This document shows, in pieces, positions 18,315 through 29,945 of a DNA stretch of 64,000 nucleotides; position 1 is the first letter of the stretch; every line of letters begins with the position of its first letter. The stretch comes from Patescibacteria group bacterium (GTDB lineage Bacteria; Patescibacteriota; Patescibacteriia; SG8-24; DYFX01), in the NCBI GenBank assembly GCA_030583805.1, contig CP129476.1, positions 669,640 to 733,639 of the forward strand, read 5' to 3'. Both the position numbers and the translations under genes were made by a program. The notes beneath the pieces are model-generated. The model searched no databases, was not told where the DNA came from, and worked only from the letters and a program-made list of their open reading frames with translations.

Positions 18315-18389
18315 GGCCTCATCGTCTAACGGTTAGGACAGCTCCCTTTCACGGAGCAGATAGGGGTTCGATTCCCCTTGGGGCTACCA
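18315..18389 (+). tRNA. tRNA-Glu (anticodon UUC)
   Basis: Hand-folded cloverleaf. The acceptor stem is GGCCUCA/UGGGGCU with 2 G-U pairs. The D arm is GTCT/GGAC. The anticodon arm is GCTCC-cTTTCAc-GGAGC. The T arm is AGGGG-TTCGATT-CCCCT. CCA is encoded. Confidence 0.8.
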
Positions 18390-19878
18390 AAAGCGACCTT
18401 CCTTCCGGGAAGGTCGTTTTTATTGCAAAGATTGGCGACAAAGCGGTAGTTCCAAATTTGTTTCCGTCGAAAGTCAGTCTTTCCTTGAAAATTAGGTTCT
18501 GAAAACGGATACGGGCGTGATGATTGCCTTCAAGGCCCATCCATGTCTTGGCGGGCTGACCAATAAATTTAAAGCAGTAGTCCATAGCCCCCTGCAGATC
18601 AAAGTCGTCCTTTCGGTTATCTTCTATCAGCGAGTATTGGACGTCGAGCCTCTTGCTATTCAATGCCCGCTGCTCCTGAAAATCCTCATCACTATATTTT
18701 CCGTTTCGGTGTAATTCAAAGATTTGCTGACGCTCGATCTTCAGCTTTTCAATAATCTGTTGTACGGCAGCCTCTCGTTTGTCAAAACGTCGGTGATTGG
18801 ACTTCCAAATGTCCATAACAACCGATTTGAACAACTTCTCGTATTTCTGATCGGGAGCGATTGTAGAAAGGTGCTTAACAAAAGTACTTTCAAATTTATC
18901 TTTTGCGATTGTTTTTTTCTTGGAGCACGCACTATTGGAGTGGTGGTAATAGGGGTAGCGCTTACCTTTCCACCCTCGCGTGTTGCTACCAGTTAGTGGC
19001 GACCCGCATTCAGCGCAGCAAATAAGTTTCCGTAGTGGAAACATAGAATTATCAGTTTCCCGAGGTACGGACCAGCTGGAACGTTGGCCCGTCGGCTGCT
19101 GGCACGCCCGGAAAAGTTGCGGGGCAATAATAGGTTCAAAGCCGCCCACCCATTCCTCACCAAAAGCTTTGATAACTCCGCAATATGCCGGGTTGCGTAG
19201 CAGCTTTTGGACCTCTTGCGGCAGGATGGGTTTCTTACGTTTCGTGAGCAAGCCTTGCTTTGTCAAGAAATCCGCCATTTCCTTATAGGTCTTCTCCCCC
19301 TTCGCGTATTCTTCAAAACCTGCACGCACAATGGGCGCCATGATCGGATCAGGAACAATATGCGTTCTTTTACCGCGCAGAGGTTTGTAGTACCCCAGAG
19401 GTGGTATCCAAACCCAGTACCCCTCCTTTGCACGTTGGATCATTCCATTTTTTGTTCGATTGGCACGTTGCGCATTATCGTATTGAGCAACAAGAGCATG
19501 GATACCTCCCATGAATTCACCCTCCGGGGTTTCGTTGATCGTTTCAGATACGGACCGCAAGCTCGTCCCATGCTTCAACAAGATTTCACGCACCCCTAAA
19601 TGCACCTGCGCGTTGCGAGAAAAGCGGTCCAACTTATGGACGATGAAGAAGGTGGGCTTGTTTTTCGTGCAGTAGTCAATCGCTGCCATAAACGCAGCGC
19701 GGTCAGCCGTTTTGGCGGATTGGCCACCCTCAACAAAAACCTTCAGGACGGTAATCTTGTTTCGCTGAGCATACTCGCGGCACTGCTCCTCCTGCGTCTC
19801 CAAGCTGGTCCCCTCAACCTGCTCTTTCGAAGAAACGCGGACGTAGATAATACATGTTTGGTTGGCCTGTGGGTTCAT
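18349..19878 (-). CDS. Large serine recombinase (integrase)
   Basis: 509 aa. The N-terminal resolvase catalytic domain (IIYVRVSSKEQ) is followed by a recombinase domain and a zinc ribbon (CCAECGSPL...). The last ~13 codons (...GIEPLSAP) are encoded by the complementary strand of the tRNA-Glu T-arm and acceptor. Confidence 0.85.
   Translation of the reverse strand: MNPQANQTCIIYVRVSSKEQVEGTSLETQEEQCREYAQRNKITVLKVFVEGGQSAKTADRAAFMAAIDYCTKNKPTFFIVHKLDRFSRNAQVHLGVREILLKHGTSLRSVSETINETPEGEFMGGIHALVAQYDNAQRANRTKNGMIQRAKEGYWVWIPPLGYYKPLRGKRTHIVPDPIMAPIVRAGFEEYAKGEKTYKEMADFLTKQGLLTKRKKPILPQEVQKLLRNPAYCGVIKAFGEEWVGGFEPIIAPQLFRACQQPTGQRSSWSVPRETDNSMFPLRKLICCAECGSPLTGSNTRGWKGKRYPYYHHSNSACSKKKTIAKDKFESTFVKHLSTIAPDQKYEKLFKSVVMDIWKSNHRRFDKREAAVQQIIEKLKIERQQIFELHRNGKYSDEDFQEQRALNSKRLDVQYSLIEDNRKDDFDLQGAMDYCFKFIGQPAKTWMGLEGNHHARIRFQNLIFKERLTFDGNKFGTTALSPIFAIKTTFPEGRSLLVAPRGIEPLSAP
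18393..18421 (+). terminator. Hairpin plus T-run immediately after the tRNA
   Basis: The sequence gcgaccttccttccgggaaggtcg ends in ttttt. Confidence 0.6.
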
Positions 19879-20198
19879 AGCTCATTCCGTACAATACCCA
19901 ATTTTTCGATGTTGGAGCCGACCCCAAGGGGTTTTTTGGAAAGATGATCTATTTTCCATCCCCGAGCATCGAAAGCTAGATGTCCGATGCCATACAAGAT
20001 TGCTAAAATACCCTCTAACTGCTCATTAGTGAGGTCTTTCAAGGCCGGATCGACTTTTCTAGCCTGTTTGGGCGAGAGCATCAGGAATAGCAACAAAAAA
20101 GCGTGCATGCCCACAACCCAAAAATAGGGGTTGTGAGGCATACACGCTTTCCGGCGATCCGACGTTATCGGACCGTACCCGGCTTCGGCGCTCGGCAA
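19875..20198 (-). CDS. Hypothetical small membrane protein
   Basis: 107-aa ORF that overlaps the recombinase start by 4 nt. It has one hydrophobic segment and low GC like the rest of the island. Confidence 0.35.
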   Translation of the reverse strand: MPSAEAGYGPITSDRRKACMPHNPYFWVVGMHAFLLLFLMLSPKQARKVDPALKDLTNEQLEGILAILYGIGHLAFDARGWKIDHLSKKPLGVGSNIEKLGIVRNEL

Positions 20199-20269
20199 AT
20201 TGCCGACGGTTGGGAAGACCTTATAGCGACAAGATTATATCTTTTTTGCACCCTATGCAAGTGCTGGTG

Positions 20270-22033
20270 TTATGCGGCTAGCTGCTCAAACACTGGGTCC
20301 AAACGTTCGGCTGCTACCCTTTTGGCACCGACCATTTTTGCCAGTTCCAAACACGCAACACCATATCCAATATTCTTCGAAGCAATATGGCGTTGATAAA
20401 ATTCCTTCAACATGGCTTTGCCGTGAAAACGATCTGTGGCCTTTCCCTCCGCCAATATTCCATCAACTACTTCGGTGGCATCAAGCACATAGCGCCCTAG
20501 GTCCGTGTCGTTAGGCAGCAATGCTTGAATTTCAGCCACCGCGCTTCTGTGGGCCTCCTTCACCTCCGCAACCGTAGCACCATTAAGACGCACCGTCCGA
20601 GTTTTTAACTTTTGACGAACGCGCCGTGCAATCTCGCTATTCTTCATGCTTGTAGCAATTACAACAAGCTCTTTCGAGAGTGCCGCTTCATCCGCAAAGG
20701 TATTCACTTCGATACTCAACAAGTACTGTTGCAGAATTTCCGGGTCTAAAAGGAAATTTTCGATCATGCATACAGGTAGCTGAAAAACGCCTGGGGTGCT
20801 TCCGAGAGATTGATCTGCGTCTACAAGACCCCTCACACGAATTCTATAGACGTCTTCGGGAACATGCTCGCGCAGACGAGTGACCGTATTAATGACATTC
20901 CCCTTACCACCCACTGGAACCAGTGTGTATGCAGTTGCCCTTGGATAAAAGATTTGAAGCAATCGAAGGTCGGAAGGCTCGTCGGGCGGTGCTGTCTCGC
21001 CTTCAATGCAAACCAGCGCTCGACCAGTGGTAAGGAAATAGGTACTACCAGCGAGTTGCTTTAGGGCCTCTAAGCGCTCAAGGCTAGATGCAATGCGCTT
21101 GAGTTGGTTTTCTTCCGGATCAGCTGACGGATTGGACAACAGGTACAACTCGTTGTCGAACGTCTGATCTAAGATGGTGGGTGAATGTGTAGTGAGAACG
21201 AATTGAGTTCTTGCAGTTGCTGCTTGGTTTCGTACGTAAGCAAGCAATTTTGATTGTAGGTCCGGGTGCAAATGCTGCTCTGGCTCATCCACTAAAAAAA
21301 CCCGATCCTCCGGCGCTCGAGCGGCCGGAGTGCTGCCAGACCCAATAGTTTCTAATTTCTCCAAATTCTCACGAATAGCGTCCTCCAGCAGGGGAAGGAA
21401 AAGAACGATGATCGATTTTTCGCCCGAACTCATGTCGTCAATATCAACCTCGATGGTGCCGCTGGCATCCTTACGAGCCCAGATACAACGGATATTTTCT
21501 TCGTCGGCAAAATCAATCCTATCGAAAACGAGGTGTGGCAATAGATACTTAGTCAGGTTTTCTAGGGGTTCGTAGATGCGCGGCAATGTTGCCGGATCAA
21601 TAGTTTCCCCATGACGTTGCTTTGCATCAACTACTCCAGCAATGATTGCCTGCCGCCGATTTTCGATCTTCCCTAGGGTATGCTTGATCGTACTACCAGC
21701 TTCATCGACGTTTCCGGGCGTGCGGGCAGAGTTATGAAAACTCAGGCCCTCGTAACCAGAAACATCATTGCCAGAAATCAAATCCGCAAGTGACCTAAGA
21801 CCGCCGGACAACCATCCACGCCTTACTTTAGTGGCGCGAAGAACACGGTGGGGCGGTTGATAAAAAATACGCGTGTTACCATCCGTGGTATTAGCACCTT
21901 GTTTAATGGCATATAAAAGCGTGGACTTGCCCACACCATTCGGACCAGCAATAACCATCACAGCCGGAACCTCTGTCGCTTCAGCTAGACGAATGGACTT
22001 GTTATTTACGACCCTGAAAGTTTTTAACCCCAT
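20270..22033 (-). CDS. OLD-family / PARIS (AriA-AriB fusion)-like ABC-type ATPase with C-terminal Toprim-like nuclease domain
   Basis: 587 aa. ABC-ATPase motifs seen: Walker A GPNGVGKST, Q-loop FYQPPH, signature-like MSSGEKS, Walker B/D-loop VFLVDEPEQHLHP, and H-loop LTTHSP. A C-terminal region with LVCIEGETA and GLVDADQS resembles the Toprim E and DxD motifs of OLD/DUF4435 nucleases. Confidence 0.6.
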   Translation of the reverse strand: MGLKTFRVVNNKSIRLAEATEVPAVMVIAGPNGVGKSTLLYAIKQGANTTDGNTRIFYQPPHRVLRATKVRRGWLSGGLRSLADLISGNDVSGYEGLSFHNSARTPGNVDEAGSTIKHTLGKIENRRQAIIAGVVDAKQRHGETIDPATLPRIYEPLENLTKYLLPHLVFDRIDFADEENIRCIWARKDASGTIEVDIDDMSSGEKSIIVLFLPLLEDAIRENLEKLETIGSGSTPAARAPEDRVFLVDEPEQHLHPDLQSKLLAYVRNQAATARTQFVLTTHSPTILDQTFDNELYLLSNPSADPEENQLKRIASSLERLEALKQLAGSTYFLTTGRALVCIEGETAPPDEPSDLRLLQIFYPRATAYTLVPVGGKGNVINTVTRLREHVPEDVYRIRVRGLVDADQSLGSTPGVFQLPVCMIENFLLDPEILQQYLLSIEVNTFADEAALSKELVVIATSMKNSEIARRVRQKLKTRTVRLNGATVAEVKEAHRSAVAEIQALLPNDTDLGRYVLDATEVVDGILAEGKATDRFHGKAMLKEFYQRHIASKNIGYGVACLELAKMVGAKRVAAERLDPVFEQLAA

Positions 22034-22346
22034 GTTTATTTGCTTGCTGACTTACGTTGGACAGAAGCGCCTTCACACGCTCCTTTTGATCATTGGACAT
22101 CCACTGTGCCCAATACCCCTGATATGAGGCAAGTTGTAGATAGGCGTTATACGCCGCGTCACCAGCGAATAGCTGTTGTGCCTGCGGTGAGCGGGTAACT
22201 AGTGTGGGGCTGTTGGTAGTGGCACGCAGCACCAGTCTTTGCGTGTCGGGCTGGTTATTTTCAGCGGTTTCTAAGCACCACTCAATATGGTCGAGCAATG
22301 CTCCATGCTTTGCGACATTATCACTGATTGGGATGCGAAAAAACAT
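22002..22346 (-). CDS. Hypothetical protein (114 aa), co-operonic with the OLD-like gene
   Basis: The ORF overlaps the downstream ATPase start by 32 nt. It has no known motif and the island's low-GC composition. Confidence 0.4.
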   Translation of the reverse strand: MFFRIPISDNVAKHGALLDHIEWCLETAENNQPDTQRLVLRATTNSPTLVTRSPQAQQLFAGDAAYNAYLQLASYQGYWAQWMSNDQKERVKALLSNVSQQANKHGVKNFQGRK

Positions 22347-22349
22347 ACT

Positions 22350-22562
22350 TCAGTTCTCGGTTCTCTCATTAATGAGCTCGCCTAAACATACAAGGTAAGC
22401 GACGCTAATGCCTACCACGAAAGCACGTTGTACCATTCCGCCACCGAAGACGTAGCCCAGAAGTGTGCCGCCAACAAACGCTGCGACCTGCTGAAGAATG
22501 ATCCTGCGAATTGGTGCCTCGCCTATTCCATACCAGCCCCAAAACCCTCTCTCTTTTTTCAT
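22350..22562 (-). CDS. Small two-TM membrane protein (hypothetical)
   Basis: MKKERGFWGWYG... with two hydrophobic helices. It is the first gene of the three-gene minus-strand operon. The start is uncertain (no SD). Confidence 0.35.
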   Translation of the reverse strand: MKKERGFWGWYGIGEAPIRRIILQQVAAFVGGTLLGYVFGGGMVQRAFVVGISVAYLVCLGELINERTEN

Positions 22563-22815
22563 ACCCGTGGTTGGATTTATTGGCAGGACGCACAAAGCTC
22601 CCCGCCAGCGATGGCTTGCGCCACCCATGCAAGTTTCCCTGCATGACCAACCACGGTGCTCTGACGAGGAGCCCTATACCGTGGTTGGTTTAGATGCCGT
22701 GCCCAGCGTTTTAGGCTGGGGTTAGGCACTATGAATTGTGGTGGTAATTTATCACATCTGGACCAGAAAGCTACAATGCTCGCTCCAAGACGCCTACTTT
22801 CAAAATTCGCTAAAC

Positions 22816-24273
22816 ATGGCTAGGCTTGTTAGCAACACCCCCCCCTTCACTCAGAAGACAATGATTGAAAAAACTGAAATAGAGGCCAAGGCAAAGGAGT
22901 TTGAGCTACACGTCGCAAATGTACAACGTGACTATGTTTTTGGTTGGCTACTTTTTGGTATTTTTACTTCAAGCAAATTAAAAGATCAGATTTTTTTGAA
23001 AGGCGGAAATGCATTACGCAAAGGGTATTTCCGTGACACACGCTTTTCAAGCGATTTGGACCTCGGTATTCCAAATGACATTGAACAGACTGTTTTGCTC
23101 GATGAGTTCAATGCTGTCTGCGCCTTTGTTGAGCATCACGCGGGGATTTCATTTGTTACGGATGAAAATAAAGTTGAGGAGAAGTTTGCCGCCGCCGAAG
23201 CGCCGATCCCTGGGTTGCGGGTCTATGAGGCCCGGATTTATTTCAGGGATTTCTATGGTAAAGCCGATCATTTCAAAATAAAGGTGGCGATGGACATCAC
23301 CCGTTTCGACAAGGTTCTATTACCGATACAATCGGTTGATTTGATACATCCATACTCTGATGCCAGCGATGTCGCCTGCAAAATCCAGTGTATGAAGTTG
23401 GAGGAGATCATCGCCACGAAATTGAAATGTCTTTTGCAAAGGGAGCATGCTCCTGATTTGTTCGATTACGTATATTCAATCAAACAGCTGGGCGGCGAGC
23501 TCAACAAAACCGAGGTAATTACGACGCTGGTTCAGAAAACAATTTTCGGACGCAACCCACATGTTCTGAAATGTATTCTACGAAATACACCTTTTGACTA
23601 TTTCAAAAGCTATTGGGCAACGACCGTTGTGTGTGCGAAACAATTTATCTTTGGAGTAGAAGAAGCAATTACGTTTTTTCTTTCTGACCTCGAAGGCTTG
23701 TTCACCATTTACCCGGATAATGGCTTCGAAGCGTTTGCTTACTTTGGACCAGAATTGAGATTGCCGATCATGAAGGCTGGGAGAGAGCAGACACTGCTCA
23801 AAATTTGCTATAAGGGAGCGGATAGGCTGGTCGAGCCCTACTCTCTGAAGTACATGCAACGTAAGGATGGCGTAGAGAGAGAATATCTATACGTCTACAA
23901 TCTAAGCGGCGGAGATAGCGAGCCCGGAATACGTTCATTTGTCGCGGAGAAAATTGAAGCAATCGAAAATACGAATGAAAAATTCGCCCCTCGGGCGCAA
24001 ATCGAATTATCAAAGGCTGGAGAGCTACCAGAAAATCCATACCTTTTTGACCCAGATAGGCCAACTCCCGCTCCACGCCCCCGCCATCGCGTCAGTAAGT
24101 TGACCCGAGGCTGGGGAAGCGCGGCGTCGTCAATCAAATACATCTATCAGTGTAGCTATTGCGGTCGAAAATTTTCTAAATCGAAACATGACGGATCGCT
24201 GCGAGAGCACAAAGACAAGGGAGGCTATCGCTGCGGAGGTAGGCACGGCTTCTATGTCGACACAAAATACTAA
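22816..24273 (+). CDS. AbiEii/DUF1814-like nucleotidyltransferase fused to a C-terminal zinc-ribbon (candidate abortive-infection/defence protein)
   Basis: The N-terminal motif IFLKGGNALRKGYFRDTRFSSDLDLG matches the AbiEii-type pol-beta NTase signature (hGG-x9-13-DhDh). The C-terminus YQCSYCGRKF...H...H..C...C is Cys/His-rich. The start is uncertain (22738 GTG, 22816 ATG, or 22861 ATG). A possible -10 TACAAT lies at 22772-22777. Confidence 0.6.
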   Translation: MARLVSNTPPFTQKTMIEKTEIEAKAKEFELHVANVQRDYVFGWLLFGIFTSSKLKDQIFLKGGNALRKGYFRDTRFSSDLDLGIPNDIEQTVLLDEFNAVCAFVEHHAGISFVTDENKVEEKFAAAEAPIPGLRVYEARIYFRDFYGKADHFKIKVAMDITRFDKVLLPIQSVDLIHPYSDASDVACKIQCMKLEEIIATKLKCLLQREHAPDLFDYVYSIKQLGGELNKTEVITTLVQKTIFGRNPHVLKCILRNTPFDYFKSYWATTVVCAKQFIFGVEEAITFFLSDLEGLFTIYPDNGFEAFAYFGPELRLPIMKAGREQTLLKICYKGADRLVEPYSLKYMQRKDGVEREYLYVYNLSGGDSEPGIRSFVAEKIEAIENTNEKFAPRAQIELSKAGELPENPYLFDPDRPTPAPRPRHRVSKLTRGWGSAASSIKYIYQCSYCGRKFSKSKHDGSLREHKDKGGYRCGGRHGFYVDTKY

Positions 24274-24664
24274 ACTTGTTTCCGTTGATTTCGTTCCACG
24301 ATAGCTCGTATATCTGCCGAAATCTGTGCCAGGCCGGGAAACTCGAGTTGTTGACGTTCGCCCCACCCCTCAACCCATTGAAGCCACAGCTTACGGTCTG
24401 CGGAGGCACCCGAACTTGGGCTCACAGCTCTCTTGTAAAGAGCCTGAATAACGTCGGGGGTTTTGTCTTTGGTCCAAGCAGCCATTGATCTTCGGACGCG
24501 CTCATCAAATCCGGTGACGAGCCTCCAATCAGAGAGTGTCGCCGGATCAACATCCAAAAGCACTGCCAATTCTTTCTGATTACGTGGACGTCGCAGAGGT
24601 GTAGGAAGCGCACACCACGCAACAAATTTCTCGAATTCGACTATCTTTTTTGTAAGAGACATAA
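24270..24664 (-). CDS. Small HTH DNA-binding protein (terminase-small-subunit-like, or a possible recombination directionality factor)
   Basis: Start MSLTKKIVEFEKF. The predicted HTH is ...NQKELAVLLDVDPATLSDWR. It is convergent with the NTase gene and is the last gene of the low-GC island. Confidence 0.4.
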
Positions 24665-24820
24665 TTGGCTTAAATTGGCATAGCGACGCCCGTTCCATCA
24701 CCTCGTGGCACCTAGTGTGTAGGAACGATAGTCCTGCGAGGAAGGCTGTCAGCAAAGAGCTTCCATTGTTTGAGCTCGGCCACGATTTCGTTCCAGATTT
24801 CAGTGGTCCGGGCTACCACC

Positions 24821-24855
24821 AAAACACCCGCCTAAACGGCGGGTGTTTTGTTTTT
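24821..24855. terminator. Bidirectional terminator at the right edge of the island
   Basis: The hairpin acacccgcctaaacggcgggtgt is flanked by aaaa on one side and tttgttttt on the other. Confidence 0.65.
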
Positions 24856-24873
24856 AAAAATTAGGCGCGAATC

Positions 24874-24902
24874 TTGACGTTGTCGGTTTTCTCTGCTATT
24901 TT
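24874..24902 (+). promoter_or_regulatory. Putative sigma-70 promoter for 24937-25920
   Basis: TTGACG, a 17-nt spacer, then TATTTT. A GGAGG SD lies before the GTG start. Confidence 0.4.
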
Positions 24903-24936
24903 CCGATCACATCATTGATGGTTAGAGGAGGCTCAC

Positions 24937-25920
24937 GTGAACAATGACGTAGTGGTCTTTCCAAGAGACTTCGCCCCGGCTCACGCCTTGCAGAACCCCG
25001 AAACGCTGATCGCCTGCGGCGACGCGGTCTCGGCAGGATCGGTCTCGGGCGACACCATCGAGGTCGACGTGGGTTCACGGCCGCTTCGGCTCGTCCTGCG
25101 GGGCTTCAAGATCATGGATCCCCCGAGGCCCGCCCGATCCAACGGCTCCAACGCCCTGTACCTGGCGAGCGGCAAGGACAAGCGGGACGGACTCCTGCTG
25201 CAGTACCTTCCGCCGCACGCGACGACGTCGCTGCACTTTCACGCCTGCACCCGCGAGACGTTCCACCTGCTGGCCGGCCAGGCCGCCCTCAGGACGCCCT
25301 GGGGTACGGAAGTTCCCCTGAACGTGCGCCGCAGCGTCACCAACGACGAGTTCGTCCCGCACCAGGTCGTGACCGCCGAATCCGCATCGGTCATCCTGCT
25401 CGAGATGGCATTGCCGTCCGAGTCCACGGGCATGAAGGATCACTTCTACGTGGACGCGAACACCGCGCTCGACATCCATTCCAAGGGTGCGTATCCATCT
25501 TCCGAGCTGAGCAACTTCGCAGCGCACGGCTTCTCCATCGACGGCGTCGACTGCGCTTCGATGGAGGGGTTCCTCCAGTCCCTCAAGGAACCCGATCCGG
25601 AAGTCCAGCGCATGATCTGCAAGCTCGTCGGCGGCGAAGCCAAGCGCCGCGGCGAGAAGTTGAACCTGGCCAGGCTGCCCTCGGATCCGCTCCACTGGCA
25701 GGGTCAGGTCATCGATCGTCGATCGCAGTCATACCAGCAGCTGCTGGACCGAGCCTACGCGGAGCTGGCGAAGAGCGGCAGCTTTCAGAAAGCGCTGGCG
25801 GCCACGGGGGAAGCCCTGCTGGTACACAGCATCGGCAAGAAGCTGCCGGAAGACACGATCCTCACGGAGACGGAGCTGTGCTCCAGGCTGCTGCGGATTC
25901 GATATTCGCTGCAGTCGTGA
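24937..25920 (+). CDS. Hypothetical protein with N-terminal cupin-like domain
   Basis: GTG start with a GGAGG SD. The segment TSLHFHACTRETFHLLAGQAAL resembles the cupin HxH...E...G motif. The C-terminal ~150 aa are unassigned. Confidence 0.5.
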   Translation: MNNDVVVFPRDFAPAHALQNPETLIACGDAVSAGSVSGDTIEVDVGSRPLRLVLRGFKIMDPPRPARSNGSNALYLASGKDKRDGLLLQYLPPHATTSLHFHACTRETFHLLAGQAALRTPWGTEVPLNVRRSVTNDEFVPHQVVTAESASVILLEMALPSESTGMKDHFYVDANTALDIHSKGAYPSSELSNFAAHGFSIDGVDCASMEGFLQSLKEPDPEVQRMICKLVGGEAKRRGEKLNLARLPSDPLHWQGQVIDRRSQSYQQLLDRAYAELAKSGSFQKALAATGEALLVHSIGKKLPEDTILTETELCSRLLRIRYSLQS

Positions 25921-26117
25921 ACCAATCCATTTCTCCTCATGCACGCGCCTCGACAGGCCGAGCTCTCTTGCTCACCCTGTCTGCAGGCGCTTTTTTGTTT
26001 GATTGACGTATCTTTCCTTTGAAGAAAATGATCACCTGACCCCTAGGTACCAGGTACTCGTCACCTTCTGCAAAAAGAAAAACCCGCCCGAGGAGGACCC
26101 TCGAACGGGCACACATG

Positions 26118-27056
26118 CTAGTTCAGCCTGCGAATGAGCTTCTGAAGCGGGCGACGAGCTTCGTCGACCAACTCTGGGGAGTGCGCGTCGACCAAGCCGC
26201 TAGAGAGATGATCTCGCAGATTGGCCGCGAGCGCTGCAACCTCGTCGGTATTGACCTGCTTCTCACCTCGCGCGACCTGGGAAGCCACATCGAGCAGAGC
26301 CTTGATCGAAAGGGCTTGCGCCGATGCGTAAGAAAAACGCTCGGCCTCGTCAACCTTCCTTGAAGGATCTGAGGGTTGGGGCGCCATCTCGGGCTGCGTC
26401 GCAAGGTACTGCTTGAGCACCTGCTCGCGCTGCGCATAGGCCGCGCGTTCCGCCTGATCCTTCGTATGCCAAGCCGTGGTCGAGGCATGCTGGTGCGCCG
26501 TATACGCCGCGCTCCGCGCAGAAGCATGGCGGGTATACGCCGAGCTACGTCTCTGCGCATGACGGGTATAGGCCGCGCTACGAGCCGTTTGATGCGTCTG
26601 GTAGGCGGATGCATCGAACGGCTTGCTCGAGGCGGATTGCCGTGCCGTATCCGCCTTGGCGTAGGCGCGATCGCGCTCGGCATCCGCTGCAGCATATTCC
26701 GCATCGCGCTCCCTGTCCGCTCGAACATAAGCGGTATCCCGCTTTTCCTGAGCATCGATGAGAGCAGCTTTGTATTGACTCTTGGCGTCCTGGATCGCCC
26801 CGACGTAGGAGGCCTGCGCAGCGCGCAGGGGCGCAGCCGGACCGAACAAGAGCTTGGCACGCGCCTCTTGCTCTGCTTTCCACGACGACTCGAACGGCTT
26901 GAGTTGCTCTTCGAGCGTTTGAAGATCGATCGAGCCTGCAAGCATACCGCCCCTTGATGTTCTCGAAGATCGGCTTTTCAGAACGAATAGGACTACGAGG
27001 GTCGTGAGCGCAGCCGTGACTGCGGAAACTACGATGGGGAGATAAAAAGAGCTCAT
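26118..27056 (-). CDS. Membrane-anchored low-complexity repeat protein (hypothetical)
   Basis: An N-terminal TM helix is followed by imperfect tandem peptide repeats (AYTRHAQRRSSAYTRHASARSAAYTAHQ; RDTAYVRADRERDAEYAAADAERDRAYAKAD). The repeats are also visible at nucleotide level as ~27-30 bp repeats at ~26440-26600. Confidence 0.55.
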   Translation of the reverse strand: MSSFYLPIVVSAVTAALTTLVVLFVLKSRSSRTSRGGMLAGSIDLQTLEEQLKPFESSWKAEQEARAKLLFGPAAPLRAAQASYVGAIQDAKSQYKAALIDAQEKRDTAYVRADRERDAEYAAADAERDRAYAKADTARQSASSKPFDASAYQTHQTARSAAYTRHAQRRSSAYTRHASARSAAYTAHQHASTTAWHTKDQAERAAYAQREQVLKQYLATQPEMAPQPSDPSRKVDEAERFSYASAQALSIKALLDVASQVARGEKQVNTDEVAALAANLRDHLSSGLVDAHSPELVDEARRPLQKLIRRLN

Positions 27057-27201
27057 GGCCTAGCGATACTCCTTTATGGACCTTTTTGTCAATAGCCCTG
27101 GGTTCCACGCTCTCGCGACAGCCTGCCCCTTTAGTACCAGGTACCCATTTCAAAAAAATGACACGACCGATAGTCGTGTCACGAAGCCCTGCGTTGTAGG
27201 T

Positions 27202-28266
27202 CTAGATCTCGCTAATCCCGAGAATCTCGAGTGCGCGCTCCTCGAGCTGACGCGCTCGTTCTCGAGTGATGCCACCCATCTCCTCGCCAACCTCTTCCAG
27301 GGTGCGATAGGTGGACGGCACGCTTCCATCGAGACCGAAGCGCAGCTCGATCGCTCGCCCGAAGTTCGCTTGCGATGAGGAGGCAAGAGCGCGGAGGCGA
27401 CCGTCTCGCCGAGCGGCGACAAGTTCCTTCAGCACGTCGAGGCGCGCGAGCGGCAGATTCGCAGGAAGCGCGGCGAGACCGAGCTCTTTGGCAAGCGCCT
27501 GCCGCTGCTCAGCGGACTTCAATAGCGGTCGAAGTTTCTCGACACGGCGCTTCAGCATGGCCGCCATCTGCCTCGAACGCTTGTTGGCTGGAAAACCTCC
27601 ATCGAGGTAATACAGGATGCCGTTGATATACGCCGAGATTGCGTGCTCGAGAATCGGCGCTAGTCCGAACATCGGACACAGCTCGCGTTGCGGTATGTAT
27701 TCCTCACCGTCCAGGCAGAAGTACCTGGCCGTCATGAGCGCCGAGTCCCAGCGCATGGCGACAAGCTCCTCGAAGAGCGTTCGCTGCTCTCCCTCAAGTC
27801 GAAGAAGAAACTGCCGCTGAGGCTCATACGTCTTCGAGATGATCCGACCGGGCTCCCAGGCCAGCTCAGGCCTAACATGACCCGTCTGCACCGCGACCCC
27901 GCGCTCCGCAAGAAGCTTGAGCGCACTGTCGGGATGAAGCCTGCGGTGCATCGAGGGCAGGACCTGGAAGGTCTGGAGATTCGGTGCACGCTCCAACACC
28001 AGCTCAACTGCCCAGAGCATTGGCGCTCCGTCGACGTGAACGAACGTCACCTTGTCATCCAACGTCCTGAAGGACTGATCTTCCTTTCCGAACTTTGGAC
28101 GGACGACATGAATGCCAGCCTGGAGAAGCTGCTTGGCATTCACGGCGCTGTTGCCGAACTCGGTCTTGACCTCGGAGCGAGCCGGCATCCGGGAAGGCTT
28201 GGCCTTCTCGGAGGGTGAGCACCGGGAACAGAATTCCTTGCGCAGTCCATGGGGACAGCGTTCCAT
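27202..28266 (-). CDS. Zn-ribbon protein with C-terminal sigma-70 region 4-like HTH (orphan region 4)
   Basis: The N-terminus is CPHGLRKEFCSRC. The C-terminus LRALASSSQANFGRAIELRFGLDGSVPSTYRTLEEVGEEMGGITRERARQLEERALEIL closely parallels RpoD regions 4.1/4.2. No region 2 is recognisable. Confidence 0.6.
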   Translation of the reverse strand: MERCPHGLRKEFCSRCSPSEKAKPSRMPARSEVKTEFGNSAVNAKQLLQAGIHVVRPKFGKEDQSFRTLDDKVTFVHVDGAPMLWAVELVLERAPNLQTFQVLPSMHRRLHPDSALKLLAERGVAVQTGHVRPELAWEPGRIISKTYEPQRQFLLRLEGEQRTLFEELVAMRWDSALMTARYFCLDGEEYIPQRELCPMFGLAPILEHAISAYINGILYYLDGGFPANKRSRQMAAMLKRRVEKLRPLLKSAEQRQALAKELGLAALPANLPLARLDVLKELVAARRDGRLRALASSSQANFGRAIELRFGLDGSVPSTYRTLEEVGEEMGGITRERARQLEERALEILGISEI

Positions 28267-28567
28267 TTGGAACCTTATTCGCCACCGGGGAAAGAACCTA
28301 TTCGGTCGTTCCGGGACGAATACGGCTGGTGATGGCTCACCAGACAGACTCGTCCCAGAAACAACCCATACAATCAGAAACAGGGGGTTTTGTCAATCAA
28401 GCCGTCTACCATAAGAAACGCTCCTCCACGGAAGGTCTCTTTTTGTTGTAGCGTCTAGATACTTGACGGCTTGTCTTTTTGATGATGAAGTCCACCGTTC
28501 ACGCGCCGTACGCAGTCTGATCCAGACCGCTTCGTGCGCGTGCGCAGTCATCACCAAGGAGGATGCG

Positions 28568-29387: not shown

Positions 29388-29945
29388 ATGAAAAAATCTT
29401 CCCTCGTTGCCGTGATCGCGCTGCCGCTCTTGTTCACCGCCGTCATGGCTCAAGCTGCGGGAAGCAGCCCGTGGACGGCCGTCTGGTCGGCGATCGACGA
29501 ACTGCGCGCGCAAGTTGATGCGCTCGCGCCCGTCCCGGGGCCGCAGGGCGAACCTGGGCCGATGGGTCCGCAAGGTCCGCAGGGCGAAACCGGACCGATG
29601 GGTCCGCAAGGCGAGCCTGGTGCCGACGGCCAGCAAGGTCCGGCAGGGACGCAGGGCCCGGCCGGCACGTCGATCGATCGCTCGCAGCTCTACACCAAAT
29701 TCAGCATGGTGGAAGTCCCCGGCATCGGAAACCCCGGAGTATCCTTGCAGGTCGCTTGCAACGATGCGAACGACATCCTGATCGGTGGCGGCTACTGGGT
29801 GCAGCACGGAGACATCCGCGTTCTGAGCAGCTATCCGTCACGCCCGCAGTTTGCCAACGCTCTTCACATGTGGGCCGTCGGATTCACCTCCTTCGGCGCG
29901 GCCGGCCAAGCGCAAGTCATCGCCGACTGCTTGCGCGTCGAGTAA
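29388..29945 (+). CDS. Secreted collagen-like (Gly-X-Y) repeat protein with C-terminal globular domain
   Basis: A signal peptide ([23 protein letters not shown]) is followed by 14 uninterrupted GXY triplets ([44 protein letters not shown]) and a ~100-aa C-terminal domain. Confidence 0.75.

Follow-up and report, generated by a model that had tools for sequence, protein, structure and literature searches.

In Bacillus subtilis, SigO and RsoA together make up a two-subunit sigma factor, and the T4 protein AsiA remodels region 4 of the host sigma factor. The LtrA family consists of proteins in which Sigma70_r4 is the only domain; it belongs to the RinA/ArpU/LtrC superfamily of phage late-gene activators, and its members have been proposed to bind promoters (PMC3753634). 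The gene analyzed here occupies positions 27202..28266 on the minus strand of a 64,000-nucleotide stretch (hereafter, the window) of contig CP129476.1 from a Patescibacteria group bacterium (assembly GCA_030583805.1, positions 669,640 to 733,639); it is a genuine open reading frame (ORF), complete with its stop codon, that encodes a protein of 354 amino acids (aa). LtrA is the nearest functional precedent for this protein, being likewise associated with phages and likewise having sigma region 4 as the only recognizable domain (PMC3753634). The sigma-70 factors of groups 1 and 2 (RpoD/SigA and RpoS) share with it about 80 homologous and superposable C-terminal residues, including the motifs LRFGLD, TLEEVG and TRERxRQLE, but the window protein lacks regions 1.2, 2 and 3, contains an unrelated module of about 290 residues in their place, and ends right after region 4.2. 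LtrA-type proteins, which we take to be small, to come from phages of Gram-positive bacteria and to be encoded just upstream of terS, differ from the 354-aa window protein also in that the latter carries this large module and belongs to a family with replication and nucleotide-metabolism genes or cellular genes as neighbors. On balance, we consider it somewhat probable that the protein is a stand-alone transcription regulator that is built on sigma-70 domain 4 and is not itself a sigma factor.

The C-terminal 80 or so residues constitute a complete region 4.1/4.2 of the group 1 type that keeps the residues reading the -35 hexamer. The Pfam family Sigma70_r4 (PF04545) matches residues 306-347 (nucleotides 27226-27351) with 27.4 bits, compared to the gathering cut-off of 24.1 bits (E = 2.4e-6), and the best NCBIfam matches are the region 4 ends of RpoD, RpoS and related models. 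A search of the Protein Data Bank (PDB) started with a profile of 20 family members identifies solved region 4 chains of sigma-A with an E-value of 5.6e-11, and the alignment pairs the LRFGLD, TLEEVG and TRERxRQLE motifs column by column. An AlphaFold2 model built from the family alignment, with a mean predicted local distance difference test score (pLDDT) of 86.6, superimposes over 49-70 columns on region 4 in crystal structures of sigma-A, with a root mean square deviation (rmsd) of 1.4-4.0 Å and 30-41% identity; a search of the BFVD viral structures with the full model returns sigma and region 4 matches only. The first-pass annotation of the window had placed a sigma region 4 at this end of the protein and described it as paralleling regions 4.1/4.2 of RpoD almost residue by residue. 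The domain is borne out by the Pfam score, the profile match and the structural superposition, the search with the Sigma70_r4 model proposed in that annotation gives a significant match, and the likeness to RpoD is correct and far beyond chance. The recognition helix is T334-R-E-R-A-R-Q340, and among 93 family members the positions that read the -35 element are retained in 73% (T334), 78% (R335), 77% (E336), 84% (R337), 78% (R339) and 87% (Q340) of the sequences; presumably, these positions are the equivalents of T583, R584, E585, R586, R588 and Q589 of Escherichia coli sigma-70.

Matches in PHROGs and PADLOC are also limited to region 4, namely, that of a phage sigma family and that of MzaA, respectively. 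Among the regulator families of PHROGs, none is matched apart from the region 4 end of a sigma PHROG. An assignment to MzaA, the MZA anti-phage sigma factor, was rejected: only its region 4 end matches (NF041931, 26.5 bits compared to a cut-off of 800; PADLOC entry PDLC02203, E = 0.009).

Regions 2 and 3 were reported as missing in the first-pass annotation, and both Pfam and profile-profile comparison agree, with no degenerate version of either region found. Sigma70_r2 (PF04542) and Sigma70_r3 (PF04539) give no Pfam match even at E<=10, and the hallmark residues of regions 2.2/2.3, DLIQEGN and an aromatic W/Y cluster, are absent from the window protein. For the profile-profile comparison with hhalign, the 93-sequence family alignment was set against a profile of 79 ordinary sigma genes. 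The latter were obtained by scanning a genome collection with the region 4 peptide as the pattern; 79 of the 80 loci thus found encode ordinary sigma factors, and the only family member among them is L007. This set was chosen via the TRERxRQLE pattern, so that its 100% conservation there is by construction. With region 4 kept, the family and sigma profiles match with a probability of 98.9%, and the greedy alignment continues in colinear fashion into sigma regions 3 and 2, with a column confidence near zero outside region 4. When region 4 is cut from both sides, the probability is 1.1% for residues 1-292 and, by segment, 1.3% for the helical domain, 4.4% for the hairpin and 0.2% for the alpha/beta domain (Table 1). 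Several hidden Markov model (HMM) alignments continue below threshold beyond region 4 toward the N-terminus, as far as residue 231 or so, covering with residues 231-270 the end of region 3.1 and region 3.2: positions 231-348 of the family profile align with residues 268-385 of the cyanobacterial SigA1 (PDB entry 9dvs_G), and the alignments with TIGR02997 and TIGR02394 span residues 233-349. The hairpin alone yields P = 0.009 and a probability of about 4% in hhalign. In our view, this trace may be what is left of the sigma linker; we do not take it for region 3. Having neither region 2 nor region 3, the protein alone therefore cannot bind the core polymerase via clamp helices or melt the -10 element.

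The N-terminal 290 or so residues form a conserved, family-specific module in which a CHCC knuckle and a linker motif are followed by a weakly DUF1699-like alpha/beta domain and by helical domains. The CxH-x6-CxxC motif that opens this module is present in 72 of the 93 full-length relatives, and its three cysteines and histidine are invariant in the sampled motif carriers, which makes it a putative metal-binding site. The N-terminal Cys/His metal motif noticed in the first-pass annotation is thus present and conserved, but the label of zinc ribbon does not hold: a zinc ribbon has two CxxC-type knuckles on separate beta-hairpins, but here all four ligands fall within 13 residues and the model contains one bridge followed by a short helix (pLDDT 77-82), an arrangement too compact for a ribbon and therefore better described as a knuckle. 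The profile of this region has no match among the PDB sequences. Zinc-binding anti-sigma factors (ZAS) contain the motif H-x3-C-x2-C; this candidate was also rejected, given the spacing H-x6-C-x2-C in the present family and the lack of matches to any anti-sigma family in Pfam or NCBIfam. In the linker, the pLDDT is 43-53 over residues 21-40; among the knuckle carriers, P28 is invariant, and the conservation of R26, T35 and G38 is 90% or higher.

The small alpha/beta domain is modeled with a pLDDT of about 86-96, and H77, G80, W85, G129 and W137 are invariant in the alignment of 20 family members. Its residues 65-130, approximately, are weakly matched in half of the relatives by the archaeal families DUF1699 and DUF1699_N (PF08004 and PF28505). 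Specifically, PF08004 matches 10 of 20 relatives, with the best E-value of 1e-5, and two other relatives score 16-18 bits compared to the cut-off of 33.4 bits; precomputed matches to PF28505 DUF1699_N are available for several relatives, and the window protein itself has no match to PF08004 at E<=1. DUF1699 has no known function, so this match explains nothing. A search of a set of 5.8 billion proteins with the alpha/beta domain alone yielded no match, not even to family members, and such a null says little. In the domain that follows, helices 147-155, 159-170, 174-182, 193-199 and 204-221 are modeled with a pLDDT above 90 over most of their length. This domain aligns with the family's own region 4 in the expected register in hhalign (P = 0.005), and Foldseek detects a weak similarity to region 4 of SigA (template modeling score 0.45-0.51, rmsd >6 Å), so that residues 147-221 are possibly a degenerate region-4-like helix-turn-helix domain without the basic recognition residues. 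For residues 1-292 as a whole, the profile has no match among the PDB sequences, and the best fold match in the PDB has an E-value of 0.17; the hits are limited to a 53-column local match of the alpha/beta domain that resembles leucine-rich repeats and to weak region-4-like matches.

The protein starts with MERCPHGLRKEFCSRC and ends with ...YRTLEEVGEEMGGITRERARQLEERALEILGISEI; the string YRTLEEVGEEMGGITRERARQLEERALEIL, quoted in the first-pass annotation, corresponds to residues 320-349. The public record, WKZ28625.1 from Patescibacteria group bacterium, bears the generic name "sigma factor-like helix-turn-helix DNA-binding protein" and comprises 328 aa because it begins at M27 (ATG at 28188), and the conserved CxH-x6-CxxC motif is therefore omitted from it. 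We prefer the ATG at 28266 over M27 because the N-terminal motif is kept in the relatives and because the sequence TAAGG is located about 9-13 nt 5' of this codon; no Shine-Dalgarno sequence was seen before M27. Thus, the true start is probably the ATG at 28266, and the public start codon was presumably mis-called. The possibility that the gene is a pseudogene or encodes a truncated sigma factor was rejected, given that the family retains both its full length and the N-terminal module over hundreds of clusters.

A search of 1.84 billion proteins with the profile of residues 1-292, that is, with region 4 left out, identifies 310 cluster representatives at E<=1e-3, including 173 at E<=1e-30, most of which are 300-380 aa long and have the same architecture. 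In 20 members with 35-64% identity, 14 positions are invariant. A tblastn search of 50,697 deposited phage genomes and 72,556 plasmids produced no match. The phage-like contigs that carry the family gene are 130-200 kb in size. Two carrier contigs, of 163 and 198 kb, come from IMG/VR, and three more are phage-like in that small ORFs without Pfam matches follow one another in the same direction over long stretches; encoded on these three contigs are DNA polymerase A, thymidylate kinase, dihydrofolate reductase (DHFR), a methyltransferase, a ParB-like protein and a tape-measure-like protein. At locus L088, the family gene adjoins the gene for dCMP deaminase. Cellular contexts in metagenome-assembled genomes are represented by the window, by L007 (a complete chromosome of 827 kb), by L090 (a groundwater contig) and by L093, which also contains dnaX and a gene for a TrwB-like ATPase. 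The loci differ in GC content, with values from 0.39 to 0.69. The family is rare and coherent and is found in large phages and in bacteria with small genomes; it is horizontally mobile, with the gene acting as a mobile unit that is complete in itself.

In a comparison of the loci, the only cross-match outside the family involves TnpB/Cas12f-like proteins encoded on two otherwise unrelated phage-like contigs (L002, 4512-6296 on the minus strand, and L006, 14360-16252 on the plus strand). These proteins, of 594 and 630 aa, respectively, are 29% identical over 634 aa.

Fusion proteins provide further clues. Long N-terminal extensions are present in four of the 150 best representatives. P0140 (692 aa) contains Sigma70_r2, r3 and r4, followed by an r4_2-like helix-turn-helix domain and then by the module with the terminal region 4, so that three helix-turn-helix domains of the region 4 type are found in one chain. 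In P0115, r3 is followed by the module and r4; P0124 (499 aa) consists of r3, the module from profile position 55 on, and a single C-terminal region 4; in P0133, a sigma-like N-terminus precedes the module and r4 by alignment only, with Pfam showing just a weak DUF1699 match. The N-termini of P0124, P0115 and P0140 are mutually 38-39% identical, and in the fused relatives the sigma r2-r3 part stands in place of the zinc knuckle and the linker. In P0021, P0098 and P0102, a helix-turn-helix of DnaA domain IV is added at the C-terminus, and P0043 (466 aa) contains a tandem duplication of a unit that comprises an RLxxYxxLLxAxxDGRL helix and region 4. Judging from these sequences, the constant part is the module with region 4, and the variable part is always a predicted DNA-binding or polymerase-binding element. 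The fusions behind sigma r2-r3 connect the unit with RNA polymerase and with the biology of sigma factors, and they suggest that it can act as the domain 4 end of a complete sigma factor because, where a single region 4 exists, it is the family's own.

If the protein is a stand-alone regulator, region 4.2 would bind -35-like DNA, and the N-terminal module would bring a second activity, be it partner binding, oligomerization or sensing. Docking of region 4 on the beta-flap of RNA polymerase is probably possible as well because, in a few relatives, the module and r4 form the C-terminal part of complete sigma factors. The likely net effect would be that promoter use is redirected or modulated, not that transcription is initiated by this protein alone. 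We count in favor of this interpretation that, in the phage-like contigs, the family gene is located among genes for DNA polymerase, thymidylate kinase, DHFR, dCMP deaminase and ParB-like proteins. Several observations weigh on the other side. The N-terminal module has no relative of known function by either fold or sequence. No neighbor is conserved between any two of the family loci compared, and none points to a pathway; furthermore, the fusions to the DnaA domain and the ParB-like neighbor also fit a role at replication origins. Within region 4 itself, the conservation of the recognition residues across the 93 members is high but not absolute, and E347, I348 and G350 stand at positions where, we assume, E. 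coli sigma-70 has basic residues that contact activators.

An alternative that we regard as unlikely, albeit worth weighing, and that corresponds to the promoter-competing or anti-sigma-like role suggested in the first-pass annotation, is that region 4 of this protein replaces that of the primary sigma factor of the host on the beta-flap, or else occupies -35 hexamers, so that -35-dependent host promoters are shut off or re-targeted. Such a mechanism would be akin to the phage strategy of T4 AsiA/MotA, which involves the same sigma-4, beta-flap and -35 position, but there is no relation in sequence or fold, and the window protein would supply its own region 4 instead of remodeling that of the host. 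The closeness of its region 4 to group 1 sigma factors, which is unusual at the identity and rmsd given above, the retention of the -35-reading residues, and the presence of many relatives in phage-like contigs are all compatible with this scenario. Moreover, in P0124, which has a sigma r3, and in P0133, with its sigma-like N-terminus, the family unit is the sole region 4 and therefore must be able to function on the polymerase. However, the window copy and several others are found in cellular and not in phage contexts, and the anti-sigma (ZAS) motif is lacking. In a more speculative version, which seems rather unlikely, the protein would be a phage-borne or episome-borne, portable sigma domain 4 that displaces the region 4 of the host primary sigma factor at the beta-flap with its own, while the N-terminal module re-programs the choice of promoters. 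If true, this would amount to an undescribed way of hijacking the polymerase or of assembling sigma factors from modules, of which the relatives that combine sigma r2-r3, the module and r4 would be the fused form.

It is improbable that the protein provides domain 4 of a split, two-subunit sigma factor, with domain 2 coming from a separately encoded protein. SigO-RsoA is alike in concept, in that sigma functions are split between polypeptides one of which has region 4, and the single-chain relatives with sigma r2-r3, the module and r4 fit this idea, the more so as the knuckle with the linker, on the one hand, and sigma r2-r3, on the other hand, look like alternative N-terminal parts for docking on the polymerase. 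Unlike the case of SigO-RsoA, however, there is no gene for a region 2 partner within 6-8 kb of the family genes searched: neither an HMM of the fused N-termini nor a general sigma HMM identifies an ORF with sigma region 2 in the window or within this distance in the family loci searched, which weakens the model. Also inconsistent with it are the lack of any conserved neighbor at all among the compared loci and the low frequency of the fusion, with only four cases among the 150 best representatives.

Decidedly improbable is a function in replication or partition, in which region 4 would serve as a plain helix-turn-helix for the recognition of an origin or a centromere-like site. The C-terminal DnaA domain IV fusions, the ParB-like, DNA polymerase and nucleotide-metabolism neighbors in the phage-like contigs, and the dnaX gene that adjoins the family gene in L093 all point in this direction. 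By contrast, the fusions to complete sigma factors point to transcription, the exact -35-reading residues would not be expected for an unrelated DNA target, and the window contains no iterons or repeats beside the gene, except for an ordinary leader hairpin. Finally, an ordinary, very divergent sigma factor with regions 2 and 3 drifted beyond recognition, to which the colinear extension of the region 4-anchored greedy alignment through regions 3 and 2 and the HMM alignments reaching residue 231 or so might be attributed, is very improbable, given the near-zero confidence outside region 4, the probabilities of 1-4% without region 4, the missing hallmarks of regions 2.2/2.3, the alpha/beta domain at residues 50-135, where no sigma factor has one, and the fact that the relatives with sigma r2-r3 carry these regions in addition to the module.

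The gene is a single transcription unit that ends its own transcript (Table 1). The first-pass annotation described the region upstream of it as a divergent spacer of 300 bp with a low GC content; the length and the divergent arrangement stand, but the GC content, 0.49-0.54 compared to about 0.60 around, is ordinary for an intergenic spacer. On the minus strand, this spacer contains a perfect TTGACA (28391-28396) separated by 17 nt, with a TG, from TTGTAT, about 100 nt upstream of the ATG. We consider this site a candidate promoter; a strict promoter scan did not call it. An inverted repeat with 24-nt arms (28309-28360) would fall in the leader. TTGACA is found upstream of the family gene in most of the stand-alone loci, but ordinary promoters give TTGACA too, so that this is no evidence of autoregulation.

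Table 1. Coordinates of the domains of the 354-aa protein and of features in its surroundings (positions in the window)
Feature	Residues	Position	Strand	Basis or remarks
Putative zinc knuckle CxH-x6-CxxC (C4, H6, C13, C16)	4-16	28219..28257	-	Conservation
Low-confidence linker, motifs R26-x-P28 and T35-x-x-G38	17-49	28120..28218	-	Model, conservation
Small alpha/beta domain (VHxxGxPxxW ... APNLxTIQVIP ... GHxRPxxAW)	50-135	27862..28119	-	Weakly DUF1699/DUF1699_N-like
Helical domain, five helices, ARYFCLxGEEY...YLD	147-221	27604..27828	-	Model
Long helical hairpin	229-261	27484..27582	-	Colinear, sub-significant alignment to the end of region 3.1 and region 3.2
Sigma domain 4 (regions 4.1 and 4.2)	273-349	27220..27450	-	Pfam, NCBIfam, profile, structure, conservation
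Intrinsic terminator, 11-bp stem followed by T-run		27148..27182	-	Begins 19 nt past the stop codon; strong
Divergent intergenic region, ~300 bp		28267-28567		Faces a 236-aa ORF on the plus strand
Large serine recombinase		18349..19878	-	In the low-GC island
AAA_15/AAA_21 ATPase		20270..22033	-	In the low-GC island; weak DUF4435 match
LOOT RNA (Rfam RF03000)		22610-22728	-	89.5 bits, gathering cut-off 46.4; between the ATPase and AbiEii genes
AbiEii nucleotidyltransferase		22738..24273	+	In the low-GC island

Elsewhere in the window, a low-GC island extends from 18.3 to 25 kb (18315-25000; GC content 0.45-0.51 compared to about 0.61) and starts at a tRNA-Glu gene (18315-18389). With its serine recombinase, ATPase, which we take to be PARIS/OLD-like, LOOT RNA and AbiEii nucleotidyltransferase, it looks like an integrated defense island. 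The family gene is located 2 kb beyond this island. Its own GC content of about 0.60 is that of the background, and a search for att-like direct repeats that would have included it in the tRNA-Glu island found none; for these reasons, we do not assign the gene to the island. Directly after the island, an ORF at 24937-25920 (plus strand) encodes a weakly cupin-like N-terminal domain fused to the phage GP30.3 domain (PF08010, E = 2e-47).

Positions 26035-26057 and 27122-27144 are occupied by the two copies of a 23-nt direct repeat that has GTACCAGGTAC as its palindromic core, each copy 15-20 nt past an intrinsic terminator; the core occurs in two exact copies, and there are four matches when one mismatch is allowed, compared to 0.32 expected. 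The two repeats bracket, in a cassette-like arrangement, a gene at 26118..27056 on the minus strand that has a TTGACA and a terminator of its own and contains 66-nt (22-aa) tandem repeats (AYTRHA...). The encoded 312-aa protein has an N-terminal hydrophobic segment and a repetitive helical region rich in Ala, Arg and Gln, with no Pfam match. A small protein (29388-29945, plus strand) contains collagen G-x-y repeats (PF01391) encoded by 27-nt and 36-nt DNA repeats, with a hydrophobic N-terminus that, judged by eye, is a probable signal peptide.

What is known already is the region 4 domain and the general idea of a regulator with region 4 only; for the architecture, the family and the fusions, no description was found in the literature searched. 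Proteins that retain no part of a sigma factor other than domain 4 are scarce, and few have been studied. Members of the present family still have the residues with which the housekeeping sigma factor reads the -35 element, and yet they cannot open a promoter; the family travels between large phages and small-genome bacteria, in which regulation is almost unknown. Should docking on the beta-flap hold true, these proteins would redirect transcription in a new way and would exemplify, in nature, the construction of sigma factors from modules, whereas, if they only bind DNA, they would constitute a new class of promoter-proximal regulators. Either way, the analysis supplies a defined family of about 310 sequence clusters, a corrected start codon and a set of informative fusion proteins.

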